A stretch of 63,644 nt of DNA, counting the filler, from Folioceros fuciformis (Eukaryota), in assembly GCA_049999805.1 (NCBI GenBank). It is 9 parts of 9 records of this genome, joined end to end, with 100 filler letters (N's around TTAATTAATTAA, not from the genome) between each part and the next. Parts side by side here need not be neighbours in the genome. Positions count along the whole stretch, not along the records: positions 7,496 to 11,955 come from JBNGIO010005617.1; positions 12,056 to 22,717 come from JBNGIO010005618.1; positions 22,818 to 36,991 come from JBNGIO010005619.1; positions 37,092 to 49,830 come from JBNGIO010005620.1; positions 49,931 to 59,573 come from JBNGIO010005622.1; 4 more parts are not named here. One strand, written 5' to 3'. Shown piece after piece: positions 8,046 to 55,010 of the stretch (its first letter is position 1; the number at the start of each line of letters is the position of its first letter). Made by a program: the position numbers and the translations under genes. Below the pieces are notes generated by a model. The model ran no database searches. It saw nothing but the letters and a program-made list of their open reading frames with translations, and was not told the DNA's origin.

Positions 8046-8057
8046 TGGTATCAGAGC
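8046..8057 (+). promoter_or_regulatory. tRNA-iMet primer-binding site
   Basis: TGGTATCAGAGC. Also at 16288, 25698, 46492, 52340 and 48752 (1 mismatch), and on the minus strand at 61814-61825. Confidence 0.95.
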
Positions 8058-8087
8058 ACCAACGCTGGTGATTATGCTGTAGCTAAG

Positions 8088-8636
8088 ATGCCGAGGAACA
8101 GATCGAGCTGTGGAGTTGGTGGTAGAGGAGGTTTTGTCAAATCCTTCTCTCGACCTCTCAACAGATCATCTGTGCCCTCAAGCATCCCCTGGATTGAGAT
8201 TGAATTGAAGGCTGAACGTGATCAACGAATTCTAAAGAATTATTGGCATTGTCAGAGTCGCAGGGACTTCCATTGTCAAACGCATAAAATTGCTACATCT
8301 AAATCTTGCAACAGTTGTGGCAGATTTTTGATTCCATATCACTTTGCAGCTAGGCCACCCTTGAGGCGACCACCTTCTGCTCCACAGTCCTGCACGAGGA
8401 ACACCAGCACATCAACAAACACATTACTGGATTTTCAACCTCAGATACAAGATTTGGAAGGTATATTGAATGCTGCTGTCCAGTGGCAGGAATCTTTTTC
8501 CAAACGCCTGGACTCAATAGACTGGAAGATCCACAAGATTGCTGCTAAGTTTTCCTCAGAAATTGATAGACTGACCAGGCAATTACAGATTTTAAACATA
8601 ACACTCCGTTCCTCTGATGAGGAGCACTCAGATTGA
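8088..8636 (+). CDS. Accessory ORF upstream of gag in copia B (182 aa; Cys/His cluster plus C-terminal coiled coil)
   Basis: Open from an ATG 30 nt after the PBS. Contains HCQSRRDFHCQTH...CNSC and the heptad-patterned IQDLEGIL...IDRLTRQLQIL. Confidence 0.65.
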   Translation: MPRNRSSCGVGGRGGFVKSFSRPLNRSSVPSSIPWIEIELKAERDQRILKNYWHCQSRRDFHCQTHKIATSKSCNSCGRFLIPYHFAARPPLRRPPSAPQSCTRNTSTSTNTLLDFQPQIQDLEGILNAAVQWQESFSKRLDSIDWKIHKIAAKFSSEIDRLTRQLQILNITLRSSDEEHSD

Positions 8637-8933
8637 TCTAACCTCTCTGGTTCTTGCCTAGGGATCGTGAGATGGAGAGGTTTTTCATGGATTGTGCTGT
8701 CCTTTCTGCTTATTCCCCTGCCATGTGGCTTCCCCTGTCCCAGCACAAGCGGTTAATAACCGTTTCTTAAATCTCTCTGCCCTAGGAAGAAAGTCGGCCG
8801 GTTAGTTTTTTCTGCTAAATCAACCATGAAACCCTAAAATGGGTTCTGTTTTTAAATAACTACTTACCTGTTTGAAATGAAGGTCTTGTCTATCTGAAGG
8901 TCTTACCTGTCTGATAGGAGGTCTCCCCTTTAC

Positions 8934-11900
8934 ATGTCAATTAGGGATCAACTCCTTAATTTTCCTGTGTCCCCCTACATCATCCGTAGAAGAGATCTAG
9001 GTTTTCTGACACCTCCACCTAGCCCTCCTGCTAGCCCACCGAGATCTTCTACTCCACCTCCTACTCCCCCTCCTGTTCCATCACGTGTGCTGCCGAATCC
9101 ACCCTTAGTACCACCTGTCACAATGTCAACTCCGACTTATACAGCAGAAGTTAAGGACAAGGAAAGGTTCAATGGAACCAAGTTTGAAGTATGGCGAGTA
9201 CGCATGACAACAACTCTGCGTGCAAGAGGTGTTTGGCCAGTGGTAGATGGCACATATGCCGAGCCTGTCATCCTTGTTGTTGGTGCTGCAGCAACAGGGA
9301 CCACAGTTACCCAATCTGATGTTGATAAGTGGAACACACTCAACAGCGTGGTTGTTGCTCTTCTGATCAATGGACTTGATGAAGTCCTGATTCCAGACGT
9401 GGAGTCTCTTACAAAAGCACATGAAATCTGGACTTAGCTTATGGGTACATACGCCGTAAAAACAATGCTTTCGAAGTGTGCAGCAAAACAGGAGTTCTAT
9501 ACTTTGAAGATGCGGGAGGGTGAGAGTGTGGCTGTCCACACTAGCAAGTTTCGTCACCTTCGCTCCCGCCTTGCTCAGTTGAACTCGATGATGACAGAAG
9601 AGGATGCTATAGCTCAGCTTCTTCTCAGCTTACCTGCATCATATTAGACATTTGTGTCACTTCAGAATGGACCTCTTGCCGTAGCAGGTCAGAATGTAGC
9701 AGCTGGCAATCCGGCTGCCATCACCTTGGAGAGTGTAATTGCTGCACTCTATCAGGAGGAGCAGAGCCGGCTTAGACACAGCTCAACTGGTTCTGGGAAA
9801 ATTCGTACCGACCGAGTTTTGTACACCTCACCTCAGCGTGGAGGTTATGGGAGAGGGCGAGGCAGAGGAGGAAGACCTTCATTTCAAGGCTGACAACAAC
9901 AAACCTCCACTGCTGGATCCTCTTCATCGACTTCAAAGAAGCCTGGTAGCTGTAACTGGTGCAACATACCAGGCCATTGGGAGAGGGACTACCGGCGCAA
10001 AAAGGACGGCGAGCCTCGTCTTCCCAAACCAGAGGTCAATTCAGTGGCCAAGGAGAGATCTTCGGCTAAAGGAAGCAAGGCTGTGGTGAAGATTTACACC
10101 ATATGTCTTTCTTCTTCTTCAAGTGATCCTGGCAATTGGTACTTGGACTCTGGAGCGACTGCCCATATCTGCAAAGACAAGAGACTGTTTAGCACCTACA
10201 AGGACTCGCCCAACTCTAAACAGGCTGTTTTGCTTGGGGACGAACAGCAATCCACAAGTTTGCCCATCAAAGGCTATGGTACCTGCCGTTTCCTGATGAC
10301 TGACAATTCAGTTTTGCATGTGCCAGGAATCTTGTACGTACCAGGCATGGCGAAGAACCTTCTCTCTGTGAGACTTCTCGCTATCCATCACAACCTGGAG
10401 TTTCGATTCTTTGGCACCACTTGTGAAATCTTCAGGCGCTTCCAGTACACAATGTATTGGTCGTGGAATACCCGATTCTGAGCTTTATTGTCTGGATGTG
10501 CTATGTGAAGTTACATCAACTCCTGTTGCCATAGCAACCACACCTTTACACTTGCCTGCAACCAAACAAGCCAAGTTGTGGCATGCCCGACTCGGCCATG
10601 TCAACAAAAATTCATTAATCAAGATGTCAACTGAAAACTGCTATGCTGAACCACTTCCATCTTGTTTCAAAGATTTACCTATATGCGAGGCCTGTCTGCT
10701 CGCCAAACAACGGGAGAAGCCTTTTTCACATGCTGGTTTCCGCACTTCTGCAGTTCTTGATTTAATTCATGCTGACATCTCTGGCAAGTTGCAGACTAAG
10801 TCGATTGGTGGCTCATTCTACTATCTGACCTTCACCGACGATTTCAGTCGTTACACATGGACCTACCCAATGGCAAAGAAAAGTGATACATTTACCTGTT
10901 TCCAGGAGTGGTTGCCTATGGCACAGAGACAGTCTGGTCACCTTCTCAGGTGCATTCGTTCAGACAACGGCACGGAGTTTTGCAATAGTCTGTTTGACCA
11001 GTATCTACAAGAGCGTGGTATCATACGCTAGCTCACAGTGCCATACACACCACAACAAAACAGTGTGGCGGAACGTAAGAACCAAACCCTCATGGGTATG
11101 ACTAGAAGCATGTTGAGCTGGGCAAATTTACCTGGAGAGTATTGGGCCAAAGCAGTGGTTACTTCAACATATATTCTCAATCGGCTGCTCACTACCTCTT
11201 TACAAGGCAAGACTCCTTTTGAGATGTTTTGGGGCCACAAGCCCAGTATTCTGCACTTCAGAGTTTTTGGATCTCCCGCCTTTGCCTATATCCCACAAGC
11301 TAAACGTCAGAAGCTAGATGATAGATCTAGAGCCCTTCTTTTTATAGGCTACAGTGAAGAGGCAAAAGCATATAAATTAATTGATCCTCTAACCTTTGCT
11401 CCAGTTTTAGCTCGCAGTGTCGTTTTTAAAGAGCTTGTTGATCAAGGATCTCCTATTACATCTGGAGTGCATGCTGATTCTGATTCATCTGAAGATGAGG
11501 ATACCACCTCAGATCTTGCTGGTTTTGACACACATCCAGTTCAATTCCCACTGGGGACTCTTGAAACTCATCACAATGCTGCTCCTATACCTGTTGTCCA
11601 ATCTCCTGCTCCGATAGCAGTACAACAACCTCCAGTCCCTGATCTACATCCTGATGATCCTGATCTGGATTCCCTTGACATTATCCAGGACCCTAAGCCC
11701 AACTTGGTGGCAGACCCGCTCCTCTTCCTGACCCTGACCCAGACCTGTCAAATGTAGAGGAGGATCTCCCACCACCTCCTACCATCCGAGCACCCAGACA
11801 TAACCCTGTTCGAGCGCGTCCACCCCCTTCTCAATGGACAGAACCCCCATATGTTTCTCATGATTTTCGGCCCTCTGCCCATGCTGCCACTCCGGGCAGT

Positions 11901-11955
11901 TCACCTCTCCTCCTCGACCCTATTTTCATGGACGCTGCATATGCCGGTCCTCATG
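8934..11955 (+). pseudogene. Copia B gag-pol, decayed
   Basis: Pro-rich N-terminus, then gag, protease and integrase motifs broken by stops and frameshifts. Confidence 0.92.
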
Positions 11956-12055
11956 NNNNNNNNNNNNNNNNNNNNNNNNNNNNNNNNNNNNNNNNNNNNT
12001 TAATTAATTAANNNNNNNNNNNNNNNNNNNNNNNNNNNNNNNNNNNNNNNNNNNN

Positions 12056-15000
12056 GCATACCCAATCTTCTTTGCCTTTGACTTCGTAACCCTCGGGTTG
12101 TCTCATGTATATTTCCTCTTGCAGGCGCCCATACAAATATGTTGTCTTAACATCCATTATGTGGAGTTCAAGATCATGTTGAGCACATAAGGCAAATATC
12201 ATTCGAAGTGTGGCAAATTTGGCTACTGGGGCATAAGTGGCCCAAGGCATGTAATCTAGGCCAAGAATTTGTGTAAAGCCTCTGGCTACTAGACGTGCCT
12301 TATACCTTTCTATAGAACCATCTCCTTTTCTATTAATTTTGAATACCCATTTGTTGGTTACTATCTTCCTACCCCTAGGTGGCTTGACCAATTCCCATGT
12401 AGAGTTATTAATCAAGGAATTATATTCAGAGTCTACAGCTAGCTTCCATAAGTCTTTTTCAAGAGAAGAGAACGCTTGTTTTAAGGTAAGAGGTTCTTTT
12501 GGGTCTATAGTGGCCTTGTAGACAGGTTGAGAATAAAGTGATACAGGGGGAATAGGATCATCAAAAACAGCTAGGTATCCTAAAGGAGGTTCCTTCCAAC
12601 CTGCAGGACCTGAAATAGTAGGTCAGGCTCTGAGGTTGTACCTTTGTGCAGGTGCATCATCCACAGGAGCGGGATCTACGACAGGATCTGCTGGCTCCAC
12701 AATGTCATCCTCTAGAGGGTCATCAAACTCATCATCATGAGTGTCAACTGGTGCCTCTGCTGGGATGTCAACATAAGGTTCATCTGGTTGAGTTGTACCA
12801 GGTTGTGGAATAGATGCTAACTCCTCCTCCTCTTGCATAATAGGTTCAACTAAAGGAACACGAGAAGCAAGAATGGGAACGGGAATGAGATCATCCGTAT
12901 CATCAAAATAAGAAGGGTCAATGGTCTCATCGAGAGAAGGACCAATCGGATCAGCTTCCACTGTTGGGGAAAAGAGGTAAGACTCGTGAAAAGTAACACT
13001 CCGGGCATATAAAAGTTGCCTTGTAGAAGGGTTGGATAATTTATACCCTTTGATACCTTCGGTGTAGCCAATGAAAGTGTATTTAGCTGCTTTGGGATCC
13101 AACTTCTTACGCAATGCTTTGGGAATAAAAACATATGCCGGGGATCCAAAAATTCGAAGGTGGTCAATAGAAGGCTTCTTGCCAATGAATGCTTCATATG
13201 GAGTCATACCTTGGACTGCTGATGTAGGCAATCGATTCATGAGATAGGTTGCTGTGAGGAGGGCCTCTGCCCAATAAGTCTTAGATAGCTTAGCTTGTAC
13301 CAATAAGCAACCTGTGATCTCTTGAAGGCATAGATTCTCGTTCTCGGCTACGCCATTTTGTTGAGGAGTGTAGACAACTGTAAGTTGTTGAGCTATACCT
13401 TCAACTCGACAAAACTCCTCAAATTCAGTAGATGTAAACTCTCCACCATTGTCAGAATGTAAGGTCTTGAGTTTGTTATTTGTAAGTCTCTCAGCCCATT
13501 TCATGTAGTCCTTGAAGAAGTGAAAGGCATCACTTTTGTTTTTCAGGATGTAGGAAAGGACAAAACGAGAGAAATCATCTGTGAAGGTCAAAAAATATCT
13601 ACTACCACTAAAGGAGGGTGTAGACAAGGGTCCACAAATGTCTGTGTGTACTATCTCTAAAGGTGACTTGGCCCTTTGTGGAGATTTATTTTTGAAAGGC
13701 TCTTGATGTCGTTTAGTGAGGACACAAGATTCGCACCAAGGTAGGTGTGCAACCTTTGCAAGGTAAGGGGCTCTATTTAAAGCTACCTTAGACATTTGGA
13801 TTAACTTTTGACTATAAGGATGACCAAGGCGACAATCCCAAAGCATGGTTGGGGTAGGTGTCGCAGAGTTTGGAATGGCAACATTAGCAGAATGGGTGGC
13901 TCCCACTTGTACTAACAATCTATAGAGACCATCATCTAAAATGCCTGTGCAGATTGTATTGTGTCTATCACTTATGAAAGAGAGAAGACAACTATCTGCA
14001 TAAAGGATCACCTGTAGAGTGTGTTCTAGACAAAGACTCACAGTTGATACTAGATTCTTGCACATTGATGGAACATGGAGGACTTGATGAAGATGAAGAA
14101 CCTGCCCTGAATCACATTTGAATACAACTGAACCGACACCCGCTATGGGTAGGTTGTGATCATCTCCCAGGAGGACAAACTGATGTCCTGTGGCAGGCGA
14201 GTAAGACTCAAAAGAGTTTCTCTTGTGGCAAATATGTGAAGTAGCTCCACTGTCTAAGTACCATGAGGTATTGGAGGGCTTGGAAGAAGCCAAGCACACA
14301 GTGAGCACTGTTGGAGTTGAGGAAGATTTTTTCTTCGCTGCAACGTTAGCTCTAGGTGGGGCCTCCTTCTGAGGTTCCCCATTCTTCTTCTTATGACAAT
14401 CCTTTTCCATGTGATTTGGGATTCTGCACCAATTACATATAATCCCAGTCTTCTTGTTACCTCTTGCAGGTGTTGAAGAAGATGCCTCTCCATCTTGGAA
14501 AGTATGTGTAGGATATGGGGGTCATTGGAAAGCAGAACCTCGGCCTCTGCCTCGTCCTCTTCCTCTACCCCTTTGTGAATACGTCACCTGCTGCTTGTTG
14601 GCTCTGGAGTGATGGTGACGTCTGCTTGCCTCCTCCTATAGCAATGCTCCGATAAGTTCGGAGACACTGATGTCTAGCTCTTCATTTGGATCTTCATCTG
14701 TAGCCTTTCTAACATTACGAATCACTATTTTGAGTTGTAATGAAGGCCCTGTAAGAAGGTGGCAATGAAGATAAGAGAATGACGTAAGCCTCCATCTCTG
14801 AGATAGGTACCCCAGTTGAAGATTCCAAATTGGATCATGCCAATTGAAAAGCATTAACATGATGTTTGATGGTATTGGACTCCTTCATTAAGAGGTTGCG
14901 GAAGTTATGTGAAGCTGCAACAATACTCATTACATCTCGAGATGAATATAATTGAGCAAGGTGAGTCCACATATCCTTGGAGGTCTTTGCGTGTGCGACA

Positions 15001-15317
15001 TGTCTCACCATATGTAGAGAAAGTCCACTGACCATTAAATCTTGTGCCTTCTCGTCCCTAGCGTCCTAGGAAGGTTGAAGTTCACGTTCAAATCGGGCGT
15101 GTGGCCTTGGAATTGATCCATCGACGATGCCCCAAAGGTCTCTTTGTCGCAAAGCTCCTCGCATTCTCAATGCCCAGATGTCATAATCCTTCCCATTGAA
15201 TCTGTCTTTCTCTTTGAAGCTATCACTATAATGGTAATGCAATGAAGTGTTAGCATTATCATTGCCCAATTGAGAATTAGGAGCAGCTTGTTCTACATCA
15301 TTAATCACTCCAGCCAT
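12056..15317 (-). pseudogene. Copia D gag-pol (gag, PR, IN, start of RT)
   Basis: FKEKDRFNGKDYDIWALRM; WYLDSGA; HTDICGP...DNGGEF...NGVAE; KARLVARG. Confidence 0.94.
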
Positions 15318-15328
15318 TGTAGGTGGAT

Positions 15329-15916
15329 TTAGAGGACTAGGCCTCGCTGGTACAACCTCTGATCTTCTCTATTGCACGCGCGAAACTCTTCTCTTGCATC
15401 ATAATCTGATTCGGAGGATGATAGCATGCTCTCGAATCTCTGCGCATTATCAACCTTAGAGAGAATAGACAATTTTGTCTTTACTTCAGATAATTCTCCC
15501 TTAAGATCAAAAGATTGGATTCTAAGTGTTACTAATTGATGACCAATTTCTTGAAATTTAAGAGTTTCTATGCTATTTTTGCCTTGCAAATTAGAAGATA
15601 AAGGAGTACTAATACCAGCATTCAAGTTTGGGATATGTTGGAGAGCTAATTCTAATGCCTTGACGTGAATTGGGCTAAAAACTTCTAGCAAATCATGTCT
15701 AGCTAGCTTAATAAACTTCCCTTGATTTGGTTTAGAAATTAAAATAGATGCAATGAAATTTGCTATACAAGAGGAGGTGTCTTCTATCTCTCCCTTTATA
15801 GCTTGTTGTCTTCTATTGCTTCTATTTGTTGGACTCCTAATTTGTTCTTTTTGTCTTGCAGGGCTATCTCTCTTCTTAACTCTATGCCCTCTTCTTCTAA
15901 GGGAACACAAATCCAT
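15329..15916 (-). CDS. Accessory ORF upstream of gag in copia D (195 aa; basic N-terminus plus coiled coil)
   Basis: Intact ORF whose stop lies 11 nt before the gag ATG (15317). RRRGHRVKKR N-terminus and LRIQSFDLKGELSEVKTKLSIL heptads. Confidence 0.65.
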   Translation of the reverse strand: MDLCSLRRRGHRVKKRDSPARQKEQIRSPTNRSNRRQQAIKGEIEDTSSCIANFIASILISKPNQGKFIKLARHDLLEVFSPIHVKALELALQHIPNLNAGISTPLSSNLQGKNSIETLKFQEIGHQLVTLRIQSFDLKGELSEVKTKLSILSKVDNAQRFESMLSSSESDYDAREEFRACNREDQRLYQRGLVL

Positions 15917-16302
15917 GGAAGAAGGACAAAGAATTAGTGCATAAAAGCATTGTTAGAAGAGAAATGTTAGCATAAAAGAAATGCATGCAAAGATAGCAAT
16001 TCTAGGATAAACACAATCCATCTAGGCAAATGCTATAAATATAATGGAGTTAGGGTTAGGGTCGCATAATTATATAAATAGCCAGTGTTTATTAATTAAG
16101 TCCAAACGATGGATAGCTATAGACTCGTCTAAGGGTCGTGTCCTAAATATTAAACGCCACGCTCACGGGTCACTACGAACAGGTGCCCGCATGCCTTTTA
16201 AGGCCACACGGCCCTCAATCAAGCATTCTTTCTTTTCTTCTCTTCTTGTTTCCATCTCCTCCTCGTTCGATCTTGCCATCCGCTTCATGGTATCAGAGCA
16301 GG

Positions 16303-16476
16303 ATGGACTCAGCCTCCCCTAGCGTTTGCGCGATCTACAGAAGCACAAACTGCATCAAAAACCTACCTCACTTACATTTCAGGGCAGTGATCGCCGCACT
16401 CAAGAAATCGCTAAGCCGCTTAGGGGAGATGGCTGACTCCTTTCTTGCAAGCGCCGTTGAGCACTACTATAGCTAG
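16303..16476 (+). CDS. Small first leader ORF of copia C (57 aa)
   Basis: ATG 3 nt after the PBS; MDSASPSVC...EHYYS*; stop is 11 nt before the next ATG. Confidence 0.4.
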   Translation: MDSASPSVCAIYRSTNCIKNLPHLHFRAVIAALKKSLSRLGEMADSFLASAVEHYYS

Positions 16477-16487
16477 TGCGCGTCGCT

Positions 16488-17099
16488 ATGCCGAGATTTA
16501 GAGGAAAAGACAAACAGCAGTTGGTCGATCCATTCGCGGGTGCGCCAGGAGACTCCGTCGAACTCTTGTGTCGAAGACTCACCCATTTCTTCAATTCACA
16601 CTGCAAGAACCTGCACCAGCATAGACGCACTGTCAATCAGTCCGTTCGTCACAAACCTGATCCACTACATTCTTTACACACACAAATCCGGCAAGAAATT
16701 GCACAGGCGCGTGAAATCTCTGCTCACTCTGCACGCAGGTTGGCAAGTAATCGCACCTTACTTTGTCAAGATTGCACAAATGTTATAAATTCCTATCCCT
16801 CACTTGCAACACAGCTCCTGGTCGAGGTGTATGAATTAGTAGTAATCTTGCGCAATCACATTGCAGAGTTAACCTCTAGATTCAGCAACACCAACCTCAA
16901 ATTAGACACTCTAATCTCACAAGTATCTACCCTATTAGTCCCTAAAACAATACAACCTGCTAGTGTGCACTATGGGTCAAGTACCTTACAAGAATCAATC
17001 CCACCAGTGGTCAAGAACATGCTAAGTATGGAGAAAGTCTTCGAGAACGAATTGCAAAGGAAGGAAGCAATTGAACCCTCACCGGTTCACCCACAGTAA
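16488..17099 (+). CDS. Second leader ORF of copia C (203 aa; His/Cys residues, CxxC, coiled coil)
   Basis: MPRFRGK start; HCKNLHQH...CQDC; LRNHIAELTSRFSNTNLKLDTLISQV. Stop is 8 nt before the gag-frame ATG at 17108. Confidence 0.65.
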   Translation: MPRFRGKDKQQLVDPFAGAPGDSVELLCRRLTHFFNSHCKNLHQHRRTVNQSVRHKPDPLHSLHTQIRQEIAQAREISAHSARRLASNRTLLCQDCTNVINSYPSLATQLLVEVYELVVILRNHIAELTSRFSNTNLKLDTLISQVSTLLVPKTIQPASVHYGSSTLQESIPPVVKNMLSMEKVFENELQRKEAIEPSPVHPQ

Positions 17100-20000
17100 A
17101 AGGGTATATGTCATATGGAGGTCATGGTGGTTGAGGCAGCAGACCACATAGAAACCCTCCAAGACCTGGCAGAGGTAGAGGAATTGAACAAAGTAGAAGA
17201 ACTGAAGACACAGATGATTCAAATTTAACCAAAGACTACTTCGACCCCCTCTCCTTTTCACACAATACTGTAGAGTCTAGCACATGTCCAGCCTTGTCTG
17301 CAGCACAACTCGCATAGCTTGCTCAGTTAGCACAAGTAGAACAAGCCACAAGGGCTGCACTAGCTGCTAGGATAGTGCACAACATGGCAAATCCAGGCGG
17401 GGCTGTAACAAACAACACAACAGTCCACAACCTAAAAATTGACTTTAAAGAAAAAGACTGGTTTTCAGGTTCTCACTTTGATATCTGGGCAATGAGGGTC
17501 AAAACAATCCTATGGGAGAACGGTCTTTGGGAGGTTGTAAGCGGGTAAGCTCCCAAACCTCCACAAACTGCCAGCCAGGCTGACCAGGATGCATGGGCTA
17601 AGCGTGACCTACAAGCACTAGTGGTTATTCAGTCTACACTTGACATGTCAATGATGTTGCATACTCAAGATGCAGAATCCACGAAGGCAGTTTGGGACTC
17701 ATTAACCCAAATATACCAAGTAACGAACGGCAGCTCCATTGTTCAGTCCACAAGAGCTTTCTACAACTGCCAAATGAAAGAACATGAGACAGTGGAGTAG
17801 CACGTTGCTAAATTCAGGGCGCTCAGGGCAAGGCTTACTTCAAGTGGCACGAAAATTAATGAGCTGCAAGCATCGGTTGCCCTCCTTCTCTCTTAGCTAG
17901 AAAGCTACCATATTTTTGTAAGCAATCACAGCTCGAAACTTTGAGCATCAGCAACTACAACAGCTGAAGGTCAGCCACCAAGAATCTCCCTGTCTAACCT
18001 GATCGGAGCTCTTCTGGAAGAAAAGTCCACGCATAAGGCAAGCAGGGGTGGTTCCTCCCATCGGGGAGAGGCCTCATATAGGGTGCTCTATGTTAACAGA
18101 GGCCCTTGGAAGCTGCGACCACGTCAGCCTTGGCCATCAACCAACAACACTGCTTACAAAAGACGACCTGCAGCTCCTGGCTCAAAGGAAAAAGGCCCAT
18201 GTAACTGGTGCATGATACCAGGCCACTTTGAAGCTGAGTGTAGAAAGTAAAAAGCTGGGGAGACCCGGAGGACTGCCCCACCTGCAGAGATGAACATCGC
18301 ACAACGTAAGTCCAACACCTTGCTAGTTGTGTGTTTAGTGTCATCAGAATTAGACAGAGATGCATGGTTCCTAGATTCAGGAGCCTCCGCACACTGCTGT
18401 CACACTAAGGAAGCCTTCAGTGAATACACAAAACTACCACCTGGTCAGACTGTGCTTATGGGAGATGAGAGAGCATGCCCCATAGTTGGGATGGGAACAG
18501 TACCAGTGCTGCTGCAAGATAAAACTACCATACAGCTTCGGGACGTCCTTCATGTCCCATCTGTAGTAAAGAACCTTGTGGCTCTTCTCAGATTTTCCAA
18601 ACACACACAACTGAATACCTTCTTCAGTGGCGACACCTGCATCATCACAGACCCTAAGTCAAACAACAAGGTCAAAGCTGTAGGAACACCTGTTAATGAC
18701 ATCTATAAGCTAGACTTTGCCTCTAAGCTGTGTCAGCCACACGTCAATGTCAGTCAAGCTGACCTCCAAAAACAAGATGCCATGCTTTGGCACTGCCAAC
18801 TTGGTCATGTAAATTTTGACAAGCTGAAGGACATGGTGAATGCCAACAACCTATACCGAGAAAAGTTTGTGTTGCGGTGTGCCGACAAACAGTTCTGTGA
18901 GGCCTACATTTTCGGCAAACATCACAGGCAGCCATTCACAGATGCTAATCCTACAAGAGCTAACAAGATAGTGGAGCTCATGCACTCGGACATATGTGGT
19001 CCCATGTCCACAAACACCTTCAGCGGGGCTAAATACATTCTTACATTTATTGACGACTGGAGCAAGTATGTGGTCGTGTACCTTCTTAAGCTGAAGAGCA
19101 AGACTTTGGGCTGCTTCCAAGAGTACGTGAGCTTCGCCCAACGCCAGACTGGGGAGCTCATAAAAACCCTGCGCAGCGACAATGGAGGGGAGTACTGTTC
19201 AAAGGCATTTATGGATTACTGCAAAGAGCTAGGGATATTAAGGCAACTTACTATAGCCCTCAGGCTATCTCATGTAGATAGTTTCCTCAAGCTTGCCATC
19301 AAGAAACGCCGTCTTGATGTCCATGTGCTGCAGGTTGTAGTCATACTGGGCAGCTAAAGCAAGCAAGGTGCGGATGGAGGTAGCTCGGACTACCAGAGAG
19401 AATGTCTCCGTGTAGTCCAGCCCTTCGACTTGGCTGTAGCCTTTCGGCACCAATCTGGCTTTATAGCGCGCTACTGATCCATCTGGGTTCAACTTTTTCT
19501 TGAAGACTCACTTGCACATTATTGCTTTCCTTTCAGGAGGTAGGTCTTCGAGGACCCAAGTCTTGTTGTCAACCAATGACTTGTACTCTGAATTTATTCC
19601 TTCCATCCACTGCTTGCCTTTTGTTGGATGACTGATTGCTTCTTGGTAAGAAAGAGGCTCGCTCATGTCAAGTGGTGTGCTCCCATCCTGAACCATGAAG
19701 GTGGCAGGTGAGAGTGGTGGTTGCAGCCATTCCGACCGTGATGACGTTCGCCTCCTTGTGCCAAGGTCTGTCCCTTGTCATAGAGTTTCTGAAGGAGCTG
19801 CAGCATCTTCTTGTGGTGAAACATCAGAGGGACCAGGTGAGTCAGCACGGTCCAAATCCTCTTGCATTTGTTCAGCTGTTTCTGCTGACCCAGCTTGCTG
19901 TCCATCCAGGTCATCTCTTGGGAAAGTGTTGAGCTCATCATGCGGTGGAGGTGGTGTGACAGGGACAGCTGGATGAGAAGCTATAGGTAGGTATGGCTGT

Positions 20001-31876: not shown

Positions 31877-31878
<2 letters not shown>

Positions 31879-31925: not shown

Positions 31926-31926
<1 letters not shown>

Positions 31927-42420: not shown

Positions 42421-42545
42421 GACCTAAACCTAACCTCAGTCTGACCTAACCCTAATCTAAGCCGGACCTAGACCTAACCTTAATCTGACCTAACCCTAAT
42501 CTAAGCCTGACCTAGACCTAACCTCAGTCTGACCTAACCCTAATC
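42421..42545. repeat. 44-bp (2x22) CCTAA-rich tandem repeat x2.8
   Basis: Units start at 42421, 42465 and 42509: gacctaRacctaacctYaRtctgacctaaccctaatctaagcc. Confidence 0.88.
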
Positions 42546-45500: not shown

Positions 45501-46340
45501 TCCCAGGGGTCTATTCAGCATGTGGAGTCCACAAGTAGCTGAGCGTCAGACAGGCAACCTTTTGAAAATCTTGCGTAGCAACAACGGGACCAAATTTGCC
45601 AACACTGAATTCGATGCGTTCTTTATTTAGTGAGGAATCCAAAGACAATTTAGTGGGCCCTACACCCCACTACAAAACAGAGTTGTAGAGCGCAAGAATC
45701 AAACTCTTCTCTCTACGACTAGAAGCATGCTTTTGTGGTCCGGCCATCTATAGGGCTTCTGGGCAGAAGCCATTGTGTTCGCCACTTATATTTCCAATCG
45801 GGTTATCACAAGCTCAGTGCCCGAGCGCACACCATATGAGGTCCTTTGGCAGTGGAAGCCAAGCGTTCTTCATCTGTGGGTATTTGGATTTGCGGCTTTT
45901 GCCCACATCCCTGCACATAAGCGGCGCAAGTTAGAAGATAGAGCAAAGAAGTTAATTTTTGTGGGATATAGTGAGATCACCAAAGCCTACAAACTCTTCG
46001 ACCCTAAGATTCACGACATCACCTTAGCACGAATTGTCACCTTTTTGGAGCCAGCCTAGCAAGCTTCAGAGGGAGCTGTCTCGGCCACAGACCCAGCCCA
46101 CCCATACTTTGATACTCCGTCAAACTTTCTTGTGGAGGACAGCGACCCTAGCACTCTGGACACAGCGGATGATGGTTCAGATGCTGAGGATGGGGACCCA
46201 GCTATACTTGTCTTCACTCTTGAAGCCAGCGTCGGCACCTCCCTGGATACTCCCCCTGCCGCTGACAACGCCACTGGTGACCCTATACCGGCCCCACATG
46301 AAGATGTCCTCGATGGGCCACCGCTTGCTAATCTACCGCC

Positions 46341-48592
46341 TAAGAACATGTTGGTTAGTTTCAGGTCAATAGGTTAGGAACCTAGCGGTTATAACTGTCA
46401 ACTCCTTGAGTTCACGAGACATGGTTTGTACGCAACATATAGTATGCTATGCAAGCATTCCTTGCTTCGTAGGCGCGCCTCCTACTTGTCATGGTATCAG
46501 AGCTGCTTTACACTTAATGATTCCTGCTATGGCCTAATGGATCGTTCACCTTGATCACGGCGATGCGTTCTTTCCTACATATCGTGGGAATATGCAATGC
46601 TGAGGTGTTGACAACAAATGCATCCGGTCGATTGTCGCCTAGAGAATGTCTACAACATCACGCTTGATTAGCAACAATGCCTGGACTTAGGAAGAGACAG
46701 CGCTTCGCACGCAAAGCACAAAGGCTGCAAAGCTTAAGAGCCTGGCAGCGTGAGAAGGACGAGACGTACCTTCAAACACTCCATGCGCTGGCAACAAGTT
46801 TGGGTGAAGATCTGCATCATTTGTGAATTAATGGCAACCAATATTCTTAATGGCTATCCTACCCTTGATGGTTATGATTGGAGTAGCATCGATGTTTCTG
46901 ACCTCGTTTGAACACTATGTTACTTCCTTCGAGCATCAAGTCCTTTTACCTATATTTTCCAACATCAACATATGCTGTGTATGCAAGCTTGCGTGAACAC
47001 TTGAATGCCCTCTTTCTGGGAGAGCCTGCACATGAGCCACTGTACATAGTACATCAGTATGCAGCTCACATACTGTACAAGATTGAATCAGAATATAGCG
47101 TTCACGACGCACATATATTAGAGGTCACCATTCAGCACTGCAGTGAAATAAACAAGCCGTACTCCTGCAAGGCCCCATATAGAGCCATTTTGCTTTAAGA
47201 AGGGCAGATATGGCAAACCAAGCCTCAGCAGCCATTCAACATACATCCCTATCTACTATTGCCAAAGAAGACAAGTTTGATGGGGAGAACTTCCACGTTT
47301 GGAAGTTCCGAATCGAGGTTGTGCTGAAGTCAAGAAAGCTGTGGGGCCATGTTGGTGGGGTAGGTACGCCTCTAGTACTTATACCCAAGCCTGGAGTAGG
47401 ATCTGCACTTGTGGACATTGCCAAGTGGGAGGAAGCTGATCAGCAGGCAAAAGACCTGCTGCATTTTAGTGTGAAAAACACTCACATTGGCATCTTTCAA
47501 GGAGCTGGTGACACAGGAGCGGACTGGTGGAAGCAAGTCAAATTAGTTTATGACTCAAGGGACCTAATGTTACAAACTCTAGTTCTCAAGAAATTCTTAG
47601 GCCTTAAGATGACTGAAGGTGATACTGTTGATAAACATGTATTGGAATTTTATAACTGGAGAGGAAAAATGATTTTTGCAGGGTTTGACCTGGAAGAAGA
47701 ACTGTTGGCCGTCATCTTGCTTACTACACTCCCAGATACATGGTCCGGAGTGATACAAAGCCTGCAAGATGTATCCACAATTACAGTCAACAGAGTAATT
47801 GCAGCAATGCTTATGGAGGAATCCCGGAGGAAGATGTCTAGTACATCTATCTCTTCTAGTGACAAGGCCTTTTATTTGAATAAACCTTTTAGAGGTAGAG
47901 GCCGAGGCCGTCCGTTTGCGAGAGGAGGCTATGGAGGTCGTGGTGGCCGAGGAGGCACCAGACCCCAACAATTCGGAGGAAGTACAAAGCAAAGACCTCC
48001 ATGTGGCCACCGTGGGTTGACAAACCGCACGTGGGAAACTTGTTGGAAGAGACTTGCCGGGGAAGGTGGCCAATCTTCAAGTCATCTGGCTGTCACAATG
48101 AGCAAATACAATCGTGCTTTTGTTACACACCTAACCACCATAAAGGAGAAGCAAGACGACTCACCTGAGTCACATTTAATTCCATCCTGCAATGTAGCTA
48201 CATGCTTTGTCTATCAGCCAACACATCGTTGGCATATTGACAATGGGGCCTCTCAACACATGACCCCACATTCTGCATACTTCATTGAACTGCATGATAG
48301 CGCTCCTATTGAGTTTGTGTGTTTGGGAGATGATACCACACACAAGATAGAAGGTCAAGGAACAATTCAGCTCAATCTCGAGCCCAATCAACAATTTGGA
48401 GATATCAAATGTATTATATGTTCCAGGTTTGACAAAGACCCTTGTATCAGTCCCGAAGATTGACGAATTTGGCTGTTATGCTTGTTTTGGTGGTGGCAAG
48501 TGTGTAGTTGAAACTGCAGACGGCACACTTTTGGCCACTGGTCACCTGCAAGACGATGACCTCTATCACTTAGACCTCAAGAAGCAGCAGGC
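46341..48592 (+). mobile_element. Ty1/copia family E, copy 1
   Basis: 151-bp LTR 46341-46491, PBS 46492-46503, ORF-A 46677-46911 (5-bp deletion), ORF-B 46917-47198, gag-PR from 47210. Confidence 0.93.
46917..47198 (+). CDS. Leader ORF-B of copia E (93 aa, His/Tyr-rich)
   Basis: Intact here. Homologues at 49295-49576 and 52793-53074, with mostly synonymous differences between E and F. Confidence 0.75.
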   Translation: MLLPSSIKSFYLYFPTSTYAVYASLREHLNALFLGEPAHEPLYIVHQYAAHILYKIESEYSVHDAHILEVTIQHCSEINKPYSCKAPYRAILL

Positions 48593-49830
48593 TGAAAGTA
48601 TACATGTAGTTAGTTAGTTACAGGTCATTAGGTTAGAAACCCTAGCGGGCGGTTAGGACCCCTAACGGCCAACCGTCCACCGCTACCACATTCATAAGAC
48701 ATGGTCTATACATTTTCTTTCCTAAGCAAGCATCTCTCTTGTGATCTCTCATGGTATGAGAGCCAGACTTTGATCCCCTAATCACTGTTCTGGCCTGATG
48801 CTTCATGCGTGGTAGCTGCTGTGTTGCATTCTTTCCTATCCTGGGATGGAATATGTGACGTGGTGGTTATCATTTTCAAGAACGCTTGCTTCTCTGCAAT
48901 TTTTTGTGCTACTCCTTCATGAGGTAGCACAATCCATGCGTTCTCTTCCTGCCAAGATCTGAGCGCTGCTATCTGGTGGATTGCTGTCAGCACATGAATC
49001 TGGTTGAAGCTCATCTGGAGAATGTTACAGCACAACACCAAGTTATCAGCTATGCCTGGTCTTAGGAAGCTACAACGCCTTGCACACAGAGCTAGCAGGC
49101 AGCAAGAATTGAGAGTGTGGCAGCGAAGAAGGGACAAGGAGTACCTCCAAACACTCGCCCCTAATCGCTGGCAACAAGTTTGGAACAAGGTCTGCATAAT
49201 TCTTGAATTGATGGCAACCAATGTCCTCAATGGATACCTGCTTTGGATGGCTATGATTGAGCAATATCGATGTTTTTGACCTTGTTTGACAAACATGTTG
49301 CTTCCTTCGAGCAGCAAGACCTTCTATCTTTGCTTTCCAACTTCAGCATATACTGTGTATGCAAGTTTGCGTAAACACCTAAATGCTCTCTTCTTGGGAG
49401 CCCCTGCACATGAACAACCATGCATTGTGCATCAGTATGCAACGCACATACTGTACAAGATATAATCTGAGTATAGCGTCCACCACACACACCTGCTGGA
49501 GGTTACCTTACAGCGCTGCAGTCACCAGCATCAGCCCTATTCCTGCAAAGCCACATATAAACCTGTTCAACAGCAGAAGGGACAACTATGGCGGGCCAGG
49601 TCCCAGCGACTCAGCAGTCACCAATTTTGAACATTGCCAAGGAGGACAAGTTCGATGGTGAGAACTTCCATGTATGGAAGCTACGCATGGAGGAAGTTCT
49701 GAAGTCACGCAAACTCTGGGGCCATGTCCAAGGCATAGGCACACCTCCGGTGCCTATACCTAAACCTCCTCCTGGTTCAGCAACTGAAGACATAGCCAAG
49801 TGGGAGGAAGCAGACCAGCAGGCAAAGTCC
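48593..49830 (+). mobile_element. Ty1/copia family F (sister of E) nested in E
   Basis: LTR 48593-48751 (TG...CA), PBS TGGTATGAGAGCC, ORF-A 49052-49289, ORF-B from 49295, gag ATG 49588. Confidence 0.92.
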
Positions 49831-49936
49831 NNNNNNNNNNNNNNNNNNNNNNNNNNNNNNNNNNNNNNNNNNNNTTAATTAATTAANNNNNNNNNNNNNN
49901 NNNNNNNNNNNNNNNNNNNNNNNNNNNNNNACTTAC

Positions 49937-50236
49937 TCGATTTCGTTCATCAATCTCTGATTTATATGCCTTTTCAGCTCGAGCCCTCTCCTTTGCATGT
50001 CTTTCATCCATGGCTGCTTTTCTTTTGTTATCCTCAAACACCTATGCAATAATATATGTTCTACAATCCCAAACAAAAATCTTGCAACCAAGTGAGTAAC
50101 ATGTGAACAAAAGATGAATATTTGAACAAACCTTCACACCATGTAGTCTTTGAGATGCAGCACGAGCCTCTAAATAATTTCCTTCAATCTCACACTTCTT
50201 TCTATAATCATCAAGTTCTCTCATTACATCCAATAC
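49937..50236 (-). CDS. Two exons of a host coiled-coil protein resembling a family conserved in flagellated eukaryotes (partial gene)
   Basis: Exons 50236-50132 (VLDVMRELDDYRKKCEIEGNYLEARAASQRLHGVK) and 50041-49937 (VFEDNKRKAAMDERHAKERARAEKAYKSEIDERNR), 105 bp each and phase 0, with AG/GT borders and a 90-bp intron. Family assignment is from recall, not a search. Confidence 0.75.
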
Positions 50237-51529
50237 CTATATAAAACAAAGCTATTTTTATTAAAAATAATCATAATATATTTATGAGGGCTCAAAAAAT
50301 TGTTTGATTAGTGTATCTTGCTTTTCAATTCTAGTGCCAACCACATGGTTTACATAGTTGTTATGTATGAAGATGAGCTTATTTTTATGATTTGATAATA
50401 CTAATTGCAGAGCAAGGTTGTGTACGGCTAGTATTTAGGGCAGAAACTAAAGGAGAAGGGTGAGGGAAGGAGAGGAAACATGGCGGAAGTGAAAGCAACG
50501 GAGGAGGAGAAGGGGGTGGGAATGGGAGTAGAAATGTAGGTGGAGAAGCAGGAGGAAAGGAGGAGATAGGGTGAGAGGGAAAACTAAAGGACCAACCAAG
50601 TACCATGTACCATGTGGGGTTGTCCATCCCTCGGTTGTAGCTACATCACCTGCGGTCATTGTAGTAGCATTGCCAAAGTCCTTCCCCATGAGTCTAGTGT
50701 CATGCTAGAAGCGGCTATCTACTTACATACTCCACCACTCAACTCAAAATACCAACTATAAGTCACTCTCAATACAAACGTTTACATCCATCCACTACAC
50801 GCTTAACAAGGAGCCGATCCTTGAGCAAGAAAGCTGCCCCTCCACTCTCATTTCAAGTGAGGAATTCGAGGCCAATCTCGGAAAATCCTGCCACCAAATT
50901 TTCCGAGATGCTACCTTGATGGCTCACCTTACCACAGTGAGCCACCACCAGCACTGTCACCAATGATTGTGGTTCCAAGGAATTCCCTCGTTCTTAATTT
51001 CCCTGGCTATCTCCTTGGCCCAAGATATCGCAGTAAAGCTGCGTGCAGTCGGCTAGGCTTGCTCGACAACTAGCTCCTTTGTTAAGATGATTTAGGAGTG
51101 CTCTTGATTTCACCTTTGTCGAATCATACAAGAATGCCTGCCGTTCAAGAGTACATGTGCAGTAGGTCCGGAGAGCTAGAGAGAACGATGTTCCGCTCGG
51201 AAAGCAGCCCGTCCAAGCTATGAAGTAGGAGCCAAGCCTTCGTAGCTTCGCCTACCACCTCCCTCTCTGTCACGAAGCAACAGGAATTAGGCTGGGCTGT
51301 GATACACTCCATAGAGGTACCTTTGGTGGGCATTCGAAAGCTCTTGATGAGCACACAAGATGTGTTCCACCGGATGCCCGAAAACCCATGTGACGTCCTC
51401 TTGTGCAAGTCTCTAAGGCAACGGAGGTGTCATCTTGAGGCCAGTCTCAAAACTCGCTTGCTGTCTGCATCGGAGCAACCTAGGTTGTGAATTCTGGAAT
51501 GCCACGAATGCCAGGTGGTATTACCCCTC

Positions 51530-52092
51530 CACCAACACCCTGAGCCCCATGCCCACAAAGATGCATGCCGCATGCAGACCCACCATGCCGGATTCAAAGA
51601 TGCCCTCAGTGCAAAGAAGTACTGGAACCTAGTGGCTTGGGCCTGTAGCACGTACACCACCCCAAACTTGAAGAACCACGTGAATTCCTTCACATACACT
51701 TTGGCCTCGATCACCAAGGCTGCTAGCACGGCAGCCCAGGAAACCGCAGAGAGGGCTAGGGCAAAAATTTCGGAGGGAGGCATGCCTTGCTCCCTGTCCT
51801 ACGGTGCATTCACAGTGCTCCATCCCAGGGACAGTTCTAGCACGGGGGCAGCCACCAAGAAAGCCGCTAGGACCGCCTTCAATGTTTGTGGCAATAGCAA
51901 TTTGAGGCGGAAGCGCATTAGCCTGGGCACTAAGACCAGGAGGTGGATTTGCCACAATACCAGGTAGAGCAGAACACTGTGCAAGATTCTGAGCACCACT
52001 GCGTCCACCATGCAGAGCGTGAAGCTGCCGAAGCTGTTGGCTAGCTGTGTTGCCCACATGCCCTCTGCAATTGGGTGGCAGACGGATGCCAT
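51530..52092 (-). pseudogene. ABCC/MRP transporter N-terminal (TMD0) fragment, ABCC1/2-like
   Basis: CHP...W....NSFGSFTLCMVD...PPSE.F...SW.....IEAKVYVKEFTWFFKFGVVY resembles plant ABCC1/2 N-termini. In-frame TAG at 51799-51801; similarity is lost after about 51530. Confidence 0.8.
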
Positions 52093-52187
52093 CTTCTCCT
52101 TCCAGCGATCCGGGCCTGAGAGGGCGTCATTCCAAGCTTGGGATCAATGAGGTAGCTCTCATCCCACACAAAGTCGAAGGCCATGAC

Positions 52188-55010
52188 TGAGAACATGTTG
52201 GTTAGTTTCAGGTCAATAGGTTAGGAACCCTAGCGGTTGTAACTGTCAACTACTTGAGTTCACAAGACATGGTCTGTAAGCAACACACAGTATGCTATGC
52301 AAGCATTCCTTGCTTCGTAGGCGCGCCCCCTACTTGTCATGGTATCAGAGCTGCTTTACACTTATTGATTCCTGCTATGGCCTGATGGATCGTTCGCCTT
52401 GATCACGGTGATGCATTCTTTCCTACATATCATGGGAATATGCAATGCTGTGGTTGTTCTTTTAAGGAAGCCGAGGTGTTGACAACAAATGCATCCGGTT
52501 GATTATCGCCTGGAGAATGTCTACAACATCACGCTTGATTAGCAACAATGCCTGGACTTAGGAAGAGACAGCGCTTGGCACACAGAGCACAAAGGCTGCA
52601 AAGCTTAAGAGCCTGGCAGCATGAGAAGGATGAGGCGTACCTTCGAACACTTGCCTCCACGCGCTGGCAACAAGTTTGGGTGAAGATCTGCATCATTTGT
52701 AAATTAATGGCAACCAATATTCTTAATGGCTATCCTGCCCTTGATGCTTATGATTGGAGTAGCATCAATGTTTCTGACCTCGTTTGAACACTATGTAACT
52801 TCCTTCGAGCATCAAGTCCTTTTACCTATATTTTCCAACATCAGCATATGGTGTGTATGCAAGCTTCCGTGAACACTTGAATGCCCTCTTTTTGGGAGCG
52901 CCTGCACATGAGCCACCGTACATAGTACATCATTATGCAGCTCACATACTGTACAAGATTGAATTAGAGTATAGTGTTCATGAGGCACATATATTCGAGG
53001 TCACCATTCAGTGCTGCAGTGAAATAAACAAACCGTACTCCTGCAAGGCCTCATATAGAACCATTTTGCTTTAAGAAGGGTGGATATGGCAAACCAAGCC
53101 TCAGCAGCCATTTAGCATACATCCCTGTCTACTATTGCCAAAGAAGACAAGTTTGATGGGGAGAACTTCCACGTTTGGAAGTTCCGAATCGAGGTTGTGC
53201 TGAAGTCAAGAAGTTGTGGGGCCATGTTGGTGGGGTAGGTATGCCTCCAGTACCTATACCCAAGCCTGGAGTAGGATCTACACTTGAGGACATTGCCAAG
53301 TGGGAGGAAGCTGATCAGCAGGCAAAAGACCTGCTGCATTTTAGTGTGAAAAGCACTCACATCGGCATCTTTCAAGGAGTTGGTGACACAGCAGCGGACT
53401 GGTGGAAGCAAGTCAAATTAGTGTATGACTCAAGGGACCTCATTTACAAACTCTAGTTCTTAAGAAATTCTTAGGCCTTAAGATGACTGAAGGTGATACT
53501 GTTGATAAACATGTATTGGAATTTCGTAACTGGAGAGGAAAAATGATTTTTGCAGGGTTTGAACTGGAAGAAGAACTGTTGGCCGTCATCTTGCTTACTA
53601 CACTCCCAGATACATGGTCCGAAGTGGTACAAAGCCTGCAAGATGTATCCACAATTACAGTCAACAGAGTAATTGCTGCAATGCTTATGGAGGAATCCCG
53701 AAGGAAGATGTCTAGTACATCTATCTCTTCTAGTGACAAGGCCTTTTATTTGAATAAACCTTTTAGAGGTAGAGACCAAGGCCATCCGTTTGCGACAAGA
53801 GGCCGTGGAGGTCGTGGTGGCCGAGGAGGCACCAGACCCCAACAATTCGGAGGAAGTACAAAGCAAAGACCTTCATGTGGCCTCTGTGGGATGACAAACC
53901 ACATGTGGGAAACTTGTCGGAAGAGACTTGCCGGGGAAGGTGGCCAATCTTCAGGTCATCTGACTGTCACAATGAGCAAATACAGCCGTGCTTTTGTTAT
54001 GCACGTAACCACCACAAAGGAGAAGCAGGACGACTCACCTGAGTCACATTCAATTCCATCATGCAATGTAGCTACATGCTTTGTCAATAAGCCAACGCAT
54101 GATTGGTATATTGATAGTGGGGCCTCTCAACACATGACCCCACGTTCTGCATACTTCACTGAACTGCATGATAGTGCTCCTACTGAGTTTGTGCGTTTGG
54201 GAGATGATACCACACACAAGATAGAAGGTCAAGGAATAATTCATCTCAATCTCAAACCCAATCAACATTTGGAGATATCAAATGTATTCCTGGTTTGACA
54301 AAGAACCTTGTATCAGTCCGGAAGATTGACGAATCCGGCTGTTATGCTTGTTTCGGTGGTGGCAAGTGTGTAGTTGAAACTGTAGACGACACACTTTTGG
54401 CCATTGGTCACCTGCAAGACCATCGATGACCTCTATCACTTAGACCTCAAGAAGCAGCAAGCAAACTCAGCCTCAGCTCATTCTCACTTTGCCAAACCCT
54501 CACTTACTTACTTGTGGCATTTGCGTCTTGGCCACATGAATTTTCCAAAACTTGTGAAGATGTATAAGGAGCATCTAGTTGTTGGCGTCACTCTGAATGA
54601 CTTTGGCGCTTGTGAGGCATGTATTCTTGGCAAGCATAAACGAGCCCCGTTTCCTACAAAAGCAGCCACAAGAGCTACTAAAGTGTTAGGACTTGTGCAT
54701 ATTTGTGGCCCCTTACCTAAATCTAATGGTGGCAAGGAGTATTTTCTGACCTTTATAGATGACTTCACGTGTTTTTGTGTAGTCTATCTCCTGAAGCGCA
54801 AGTCTGACATCTTTGGCTGCTTCCTAGAGTTCAAGGCATGGGCTGAGCAGCAGACGGGCCATGCGTTGAAGCAACTCTGTACCGACAATGGCGGAGAGTA
54901 TTTATCTAGTGAGTTTGTCTCCTTCTGCAAAACTCATGGTATTGGTCGTCAGCTTACCAATGCACCTACTCCTCAGCAAAACAACGTTTCAGAAAACAAG
55001 AATCAGGCAT
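52188..55010 (+). mobile_element. Ty1/copia family E, copy 2
   Basis: LTR 52188-52339 (TGA...TCA), PBS 52340-52351, ORF-A, ORF-B, gag ATG 53086, PR and IN. Cut by the LTR of H. Confidence 0.94.
52548..52787 (+). CDS. Leader ORF-A of copia E (79 aa, basic helical)
   Basis: Intact MPGLRKRQRLAHRA...DLV*. Start and stop are conserved in all three E/F copies. Confidence 0.75.
   Translation: MPGLRKRQRLAHRAQRLQSLRAWQHEKDEAYLRTLASTRWQQVWVKICIICKLMATNILNGYPALDAYDWSSINVSDLV

Follow-up and report, generated by a model that had tools for sequence, protein, structure and literature searches.

The 63,644-base stretch of Folioceros fuciformis DNA analysed here (hereafter the window) contains Ty1/copia retrotransposons in which open reading frames (ORFs) lie in the leader, between the primer binding site and gag. 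We consider it probable that these elements are decayed copies from at least five families of a distinct Ty1/copia group, and that the active ancestors of this group carried an element-specific 5' additional ORF in that position. Under the same explanation, the ancestors of families B, C, D and A would have carried one ORF of about 180-340 codons, with an Arg/Lys-rich N-terminus and C-terminal heptad repeats, and those of the family E/F/E' two short ORFs. A decayed sixth family with a leader (G) was also observed. The leader ORFs share their layout and an N-terminal motif, and their other similarity has been lost; coding capacity is strongly supported in one family and statistically supported in four. 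These copia elements are a real variant of the 5' additional-ORF theme known from long terminal repeat (LTR) retrotransposons.

The window consists of nine contigs, at 1-7395, 7496-11955, 12056-22717, 22818-36991, 37092-49830, 49931-59573, 59674-60880, 60981-62485 and 62586-63644 (contigs 1 to 9), with eight identical spacers between them (7396-7495, 11956-12055, 22718-22817, 36992-37091, 49831-49930, 59574-59673, 60881-60980 and 62486-62585), each made of 44 N, TTAATTAATTAA and 44 N. Because separate contigs are joined end to end, neighbours across a spacer are unlinked in the genome, and the span 8046-53088, to which the preliminary description assigned a lineage of apparently polycistronic copia elements, covers five unrelated contigs with four spacers between them and is therefore not one locus. 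Frames were read through with X at stops and then scanned against Pfam. Families D and A yielded the order Retrotran_gag_2, DUF4219, Pol_BBD, gag_pre-integrs, rve, SH3_retrovirus and RVT_2, and B, C and F the same domain order up to the integrase (Retrotran_gag_2 at E 1e-25 to 1e-27, rve present, best RVT_2 match at 2.3e-66). E and F, on contigs 5 and 6, were tied to the other families by blastp, and their translations show the same gag start. The elements are assigned to Ty1/copia because of this domain order, in which the integrase precedes the reverse transcriptase (RT). Stops or frameshifts occur in the gag-pol of every copy, and all copies are decayed.

The primer binding site motif TGGTATCAGAGC, which we take to match the plant initiator tRNA (tRNA-iMet), an assumption on which the label “plant-type” rests, is exact at 8046, 16288, 25698, 46492, 52340 and, on the minus strand, 61814, and has one mismatch at 48752. 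These seven matches in the window compare with 0.29 expected, and none of 100 shuffles reached seven. The LTRs are very short (about 150-340 bp). Both LTRs of one element are found on no single contig, and an LTR pair can be formed only across two copies of family A (25488-25697 versus 3347-3549, 94% identity), where a purine run precedes the 3' LTR on contig 1. Rfam and tRNA scans of the window gave no match.

Every named leader ORF lies downstream of a primer binding site and upstream of a copia gag with Pfam support, and those listed in the preliminary description for B, D, C, A and E/F were confirmed at their coordinates, each before a copia gag. Family B, on the plus strand, shows an exact motif match to a primer binding site of the tRNA-iMet type (8046-8057), leader ORF B (8088-8636, 182 aa) and a decayed gag-protease-integrase region (8934-11955), which has in-frame ATGs at 8934 and 9123 and ends at the contig end. 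Family D lies on the minus strand; its leader ORF (15329-15916, 195 aa) is followed by gag (ATG 15317), protease, integrase and the start of RT, which continue to the contig end (12056-15317). The element is truncated 5' by the LTR of family C, about 35 nt upstream of the start of ORF D, and no stop interrupts the frame as far as 15952, the junction with that LTR. Family C, on the plus strand, begins with a predicted 5' LTR of ~337 bp (15951-16287), delimited by its TG..CA ends and by the point where the reads of organism B (see below) begin, and continues with an exact primer binding site (16288-16299), a small leader ORF of 57 aa (16303-16476), leader ORF C (16488-17099, 203 aa) and gag (ATG 17384), protease and part of the integrase, after which it is truncated (17384-19354).

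Family A, also on the plus strand, has a 5' LTR of about 210 bp (25488-25697), matching the 3' LTR of a second copy at 3347-3549, an exact primer binding site (25698-25709), leader ORF A (26213-27226, 337 codons, with a single internal TGA at 26777-26779) and a gag-protease-integrase-RT-RNase H region that ends at a poly(A) run (27537-31881). The second copy, on the minus strand of contig 1 (3347-7395), comprises pol, the purine tract and the 3' LTR. The description of G as a decayed homologue of A stands in that 52 nt around the ORF start are 79% identical between the two; beyond this, only a 20-codon remnant of the G leader ORF (MARTQQ..., 39802-39864, plus strand) is left, with a gag remnant near 41195. 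The E-family elements, with LTRs of about 150-160 bp, are all on the plus strand. E has an LTR at about 46340-46491, an exact primer binding site (46492-46503), ORF1 (46677-46826, 49 aa, frameshifted relative to F), ORF2 (46917-47198, 93 aa) and a gag of 417 aa (47210-48463). E' has a primer binding site with one mismatch (48752-48763), ORF1 (49052-49279, 75 aa) and ORF2 (49295-49627), which is stopped after 56 codons and whose frame continues beyond the gag ATG at 49588. F has an LTR at about 52187-52339, an exact primer binding site (52340-52351), ORF1 (52548-52787, 79 aa), ORF2 (52793-53074, with a stop at codon 2 and then 91 open codons) and a decayed region with gag, stopped after 9 codons, protease and integrase (53086-55063).

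The leaders span 0.7-1.9 kb and hold 172-337 codons of sense ORF before gag. The distance from the primer site to the gag ATG is 876 or 1065 nt in B (ATG 8934 or 9123), 1084 nt in C, 706 nt in E, 734 nt in F and 824 nt in E'; in A, whose gag ATG is missing from this copy, gag lies about 1.9 kb from the primer site. For comparison, an alignment of copia polyproteins was used to retrieve 80 copia loci from metagenome contigs, and 69 of these loci had an N-terminal gag match. Both an LTR pair and a gag ATG were present in 22 loci; their median leader was 304 nt, with LTR ends taken from BLAST, by which some leaders are overstated, and the longest leader ATG-ORF per locus measured 11 aa in the median and 68 aa at most. 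In the 20 loci with an exact primer motif, the median distance to gag was 75 nt (353 nt or less in 17) and the longest leader ORF 69 aa. A leader ORF of more than 69 aa was thus observed in 0/22 and 0/20 comparison loci, so the layout of the window elements is unusual for copia. In addition, the gag frames of A (27537-27650) and B (8934-9122), both on the plus strand, are open and proline-rich upstream of the conserved gag start, which may represent an N-terminal Gag extension apart from the leader ORF.

To assess length, the stop-to-stop ORF of each leader was compared with 2000 dinucleotide shuffles of that leader. The open frames of B, C, D and A (192-234 codons) were reached by 3, 0, 0 and 12 of the 2000 shuffles, respectively; because shuffles so seldom attain their length, these leader ORFs are not chance frames. 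The same test was not significant for the short ORFs of E (213/2000), F (357/2000) and E' (683/2000), and in this family the dN/dS comparison proposed in the preliminary description could be run. Identity is 92.6% between E and F and about 75% between E' and either of them. By the Nei-Gojobori method, with F compared with E', omega (the dN/dS ratio) of ORF1 was 0.25 in its own frame versus 0.93 and 0.88 in the other sense frames, and that of ORF2 was 0.16 versus 0.75 and 2.89; Fisher tests on synonymous versus non-synonymous counts gave p values of 1.6e-5 for ORF1 and 1.6e-10 for ORF2. As a control, the first 79 codons of gag had an omega of 0.09, with a dN of 0.175 versus 0.19-0.21 for the leader ORFs. 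Gap columns numbered 0 in ORF2, 2 in ORF1 and 94 in the stretch from the primer site to ORF1. One antisense frame, which shares third positions, also had a lowered omega (0.48, 0.21), and stops interrupt this frame in both E and F. The frame relation of the ORF1 tail to ORF2 differs in each of the three copies, and the constrained core of ORF1 comprises about the first 57 codons. Purifying selection on the short ORFs of E/F/E' is thus supported, and the leader ORF is kept across the copies of this family.

Common protein features were also observed. K+R make up 6-13 of the first 40 residues of the leader ORFs, as the earlier claim of basic N-termini had it, and the starts read MPRNR in B, MPRFRGK in C, MPGLRKRQR in F, MARTRKR in A and MDLCSLRRRGHRVKKR in D. 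The pattern M[PA][RG]x(1-2)R, chosen post hoc from the leader ORFs themselves, occurs in 4 of the 179 ATG-ORFs of at least 50 aa in the window, all of them leader ORFs (A, B, C and F). C, D, F and E' have in common a purine-rich YTTAGRRGAAGAG-like word soon after the start, and a purine (A or G) occupies position -3 of the leader ORF start in B, C, A and F. The C-terminal heptad repeats attributed to most of the ORFs were recovered in part: the score of a 28-residue heptad window near the C-terminus was reached by 0/500 shuffles in B (aa 137-164), 1/500 in C (aa 122-149) and 0/500 in A (aa 293-320), the signal is weak in D (22/500), and the E/F ORFs have no heptad stretch (397/500 and 162/500). 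The two short ORFs of E/F/E' would have specified a basic protein of about 57-79 aa and a 93-aa protein rich in His and Cys. LTR retrotransposons are known to capture genes (PMC7264820, in the part available), and the ORFs could in principle be captured fragments of host genes or other mobile elements. We regard this as extremely improbable, since they match no protein outside the elements and since the same position and N-terminal motif in five families would not be expected from independent captures.

Several observations weigh against the presence of a 5' gene in these families. No sequence similarity was found among the leader ORFs of different families or with anything elsewhere in the window, and a profile of E-family ORF2 compared with B, C and D gave probabilities below 1%. 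Searches for relatives of the leader ORFs returned none among PDB sequences (best E 0.14, to a fusion glycoprotein heptad region, not significant) and no family in Pfam, where at E <=10 there were only three sub-threshold matches, for C; none at this threshold was to the plant mobile domain PF10536, Transposase_28 PF04195 or Athila ORF-1 PF03078. Likewise, no relative was found for C and D among 5.8 billion protein clusters or for B among 1.84 billion protein representatives, and metagenome contigs (queried with D) and viral contigs (queried with B) gave pattern matches and no relative. The codon-usage z of the leader ORFs (1.4-3.4) is intermediate: it is well under that of gag-pol segments of like size (3.7-7.4, within an overall gag-pol range of 2.8-10.6), and it exceeds that of most antisense ORFs (-0.6 to 2.0), the latter counting in favour of a gene. 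Nucleotide periodicity was absent from B (p 0.75), C (0.18), D (0.19), E ORF2 (0.36) and F ORF1 (0.52), compared with p <=0.002 in four gag-pol controls; the power of this test is low here, because two E-family ORFs that pass the dN/dS analysis also fail it. Between E and F, omega was near 1 or above (0.81 in ORF2, 1.6-2.9 in ORF1), as is expected of recent copies after insertion. The leader ORFs of F and A are preceded by 8-10 upstream ATGs. Since all copies are decayed, B, C and D may still be intact merely by luck; the gag-pol of B has about 5 breaks in about 1000 codons.

Copy variation adds to these points. Contigs of four sequencing runs, from two organisms (A and B), were aligned to 12056-19400, with 1267 differences in total, and parts uncovered in organism B were not counted as absence. 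Organism A contains multiple copies of families D and C, and C is present in organism B as well. The leaders of D and C vary much among copies and are the most variable part of the elements: pieces from organism B differ by 8-11% in ORF C versus 0-7% in gag-pol, and depth dips to 2.6 over 16711-16955, in the ORF C region. In addition, both runs of organism A contain a high-depth contig that passes from 15233 to 15843; the skipped part, 15234-15842 (minus strand), covers almost the whole of ORF D as well as the first 28 gag codons.

In an alternative explanation of these data, the leaders of B, C, D and A would be untranslated regions (UTRs), long and rapidly changing, whose frames are relics or by-products, only the ORFs of E/F/E', or none, being real genes. 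Such leaders have a precedent in copia, since those of the grapevine elements Noble and Tvv1 are hypervariable, 269-695 bp long and treated as untranslated in the portion of the account at hand (PMC2576258). With these, the window elements share a leader after TGGTATCAGAGCC that is long for copia and has large insertions/deletions; they differ in having leaders of 0.7-1.9 kb with frames longer than chance. Weak codon-usage scores, the lack of periodicity in B, C and D, the missing homologues and the hypervariability of the D and C leaders among genomic copies all agree with a UTR. Against it stand the long frames reached by 0-12/2000 shuffles in four independent families, a basic N-terminus of a type found in none of the other 175 window ORFs, a heptad stretch at the same relative position in B, C and A, and the selection on the leader ORFs of the related E family. 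We therefore treat untranslated leaders as unlikely, although this explanation retains appreciable weight.

How gag would be translated bears on the remaining explanations. We propose that the leader protein would be translated from the full-length element RNA as its 5'-proximal cistron. In D and E, the distance from the TAA of the leader ORF to the gag ATG (15317 and 47210, respectively) is exactly 11 nt, and both gag ATGs have a purine at -3 and G at +4; the short gap together with the good context suits termination followed by re-initiation, so that gag might be reached in this way after the leader-ORF stop. Plant pararetroviruses such as cauliflower mosaic virus use polycistronic translation, and some RNA viruses use stop-start re-initiation. 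The comparison with pararetroviruses is an analogy only, based on closely spaced ORFs on one RNA, and the short stop-to-start distance recalls the 11-nt gap of D and E. In C the gap is 284 nt and contains 5 ATGs; it is about 300-490 nt in B, with 7 ATGs when taken at its longest, and about 310-430 nt in A. Across these roughly 280-490 nt, another route to gag would be needed in B, C and A, which could be leaky scanning, shunting or a separate RNA.

The position of the stop just ahead of gag in D and E would equally suit long regulatory upstream ORFs (uORFs), whose translation and termination set the dose of Gag and whose peptides have no role. The rapid turnover of sequence at a kept position, and the absence of a match to any known fold or family, fit such uORFs as well. 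We consider them improbable in view of the amino-acid constraint in E/F/E' (omega 0.16-0.25), the conservation of a basic end and heptads across families, and the large distances between stop and gag in B, C and A, with ATGs in those of C and B. Alternatively, the leader ORF might encode an N-terminal portion of Gag that is joined to it by splicing or frameshifting, in which case the elements would not be polycistronic. ORF B and the gag of B share a frame, and in C, D, E and E' the ORF is followed by a gag in the -1 frame, as such a fusion would allow; nevertheless, between ORF B and gag the shared frame holds six stops, a separate gag ATG of good context is present in C, D, E and B (in B as read by eye), and relatives in the protein set begin gag 9-56 residues from the N-terminus, which makes a fusion highly improbable. 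A -1 frameshift in D was rejected separately, as no slippery heptamer was seen by eye in the 40-nt overlap. The idea that the E gag bears an N-terminal extension homologous to ORF A was also discarded, since tblastn gave only E 0.56-0.85, inside the gag domain.

If a leader protein was produced, as we favour, its basic end may have served nucleic-acid binding and/or nuclear entry and its heptads self-association. By analogy with what has been proposed for the proteins of Tekay 5' ORFs, it might have acted on the RNA or particle of its own element. A more ambitious version, which we put forward only tentatively and regard as rather doubtful, is that the leader ORF is an old, clade-defining third gene, the copia counterpart of the Tekay and Ogre 5' ORFs. 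This gene would evolve fast, with its position, a basic start of the MPR/MAR type and a coiled-coil tail persisting; it would be translated ahead of gag by 11-nt stop-start re-initiation, and its product would act on element RNA, nuclear entry or host silencing.

Phylogenetic analysis of the integrase bears on whether the elements form a lineage, as had been claimed. In a FastTree analysis with 113 database copia proteins, A, B, C, D, F and J (a further copia copy, on contig 6) formed one clade with an SH-like support of 91. An IQ-TREE quick search with 49 others again placed the six window rows on one side of a branch. There, the Shimodaira-Hasegawa-like approximate likelihood ratio test (SH-aLRT) gave 0 with the partial C row, 82 for D, F, A, B and J, and 95 for A+B+J. 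In a tree with 80 metagenome loci and 31 references, the common ancestor of the window rows contained exactly these six. The grouping was therefore recovered in three integrase trees, and the zero SH-aLRT value with the partial C row qualifies it, so that monophyly of the window elements appears weakly supported. The best RT relatives, from plants, Microbotryum, an oomycete and animals, are about 50% identical, and because of this value the group has no close relative in the searched sets.

Additional ORFs located 5' have been described mainly outside copia. The preliminary description regarded them as typical of the Ogre lineage of gypsy, which is correct for Ogre itself, but they are also found in Tekay chromoviruses (PMC11728184, as far as its text was available), where they were described in sunflower Tekay group 2. 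Rice Retrosat-2 ORF0 and RIRE3/RIRE8 are other Tekay cases (PMC11728184 and the accessible portion of PMC3485330). The sunflower Tekay 5' proteins are reported, in the sections at hand, to have nuclear-localisation-like motifs, few helices and much disorder, and no similarity between species (PMC11728184). Judged from this description alone, the window elements resemble Tekay in having a sense ORF between primer site and gag, with basic motifs and no recognisable domain, whose product lacks amino-acid similarity between families; conservation within a family, as described for Tekay, was observed here in E/F/E'. They differ in that Tekay belongs to Ty3/gypsy, with RT before integrase and a chromodomain, whereas the integrase comes before RT here, and in that the sunflower ORF is about 400 aa, compared with 75-337 codons in the window. 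Ogre (Tat lineage, Ty3/gypsy) likewise has an additional forward ORF, its ORF1, upstream of gag; 57% of Ogre elements carry the plant mobile domain PF10536 (PMC6317226, partial text), to which none of the window ORFs gave a Pfam match.

The same survey, by Neumann et al. (2019), defined the class eORF-5'F and counted eORFs of at least 250 codons in 582 Ty1/copia and 3372 gypsy elements (PMC6317226). Its text on copia, within the part available, discusses only the 3' ORF of SIRE, and part of the architecture reported here may already be catalogued in its supplements; a screen with this threshold would miss B, C, D and E/F. SIRE (Sirevirus) is similar to the window elements as a Ty1/copia element with an extra fast-evolving ORF of unknown function, the env-like eORF-3'F (PMC6317226, same portion), but this ORF lies after pol, whereas those of the window lie before gag. 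In family A, where the comparison applies, there is no SIRE-type ORF in the ~250 nt between the pol stop (3802) and the LTR (near 3549). A review from 2020 treats 3' ORFs and, in the part seen, mentions upstream ORFs only by citation (PMC7264820). No description of a 5' ORF in Ty1/copia was found in the full texts searched, supplements and subscription papers aside.

Plant LTR retrotransposons have many extra ORFs, which evolve fast and whose functions are unexplained, and the studied 5' cases are all Ty3/gypsy. If the favoured explanation is true, a copia group that keeps a 5' ORF in each family, under measurable purifying selection in one of them, would mean that the same solution arose or persisted in the other superfamily. 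ORFs of 75-200 codons, together with very short LTRs, would offer a compact system for questions of protein function and of gag translation downstream of a long ORF. For annotation, screens that require at least 250 codons, or that mask leaders as untranslated, would miss such ORFs.

Other observations were made around these elements. Family A is inserted into a frame of about 900 codons (22818-25487, plus strand) with two stops, three CCHC-like motifs, a protease-like stretch and, by eye, an RT-like start; this interrupted frame had no Pfam match at E <=0.01 and may belong to an unclassified retroelement. A run of 47 A ends the pol of family A, and the following segment of about 1.3 kb (31879-33188) recurs inverted at 35201-36726 with 73-74% identity; the ORF of this segment had no copia match. 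Beyond the truncated family C, a copia integrase/RT fragment (19268-20464, minus strand) and an RVT_1 match typical of non-LTR elements (about 20832-21266, plus strand, E 1.4e-8) were observed. On contig 5, the decayed copia G is split by a G+C-rich insert (41700-45200, plus strand, 55-59% GC) with tandem repeats of periods 42, 22/44 and 11 bp, the 11-bp unit ACCTAACCCTA resembling a degenerate telomere-type repeat. On contig 8, a 126-bp inverted repeat (61690-61815 and 62360-62485, 99% identity), together with the exact primer motif at 61814-61825 (minus strand), overlaps the end of a plus-strand RNase H fragment, and may reflect a fold-back or an assembly chimera. Finally, two tandem repeats accompany copia J on the minus strand of contig 6: a 45-bp repeat of 3.2 copies within its pol ORF (57111-57255), and a 62-bp repeat of 3.8 copies with 99% matches at the contig end (59336-59573), upstream of its gag remnant.

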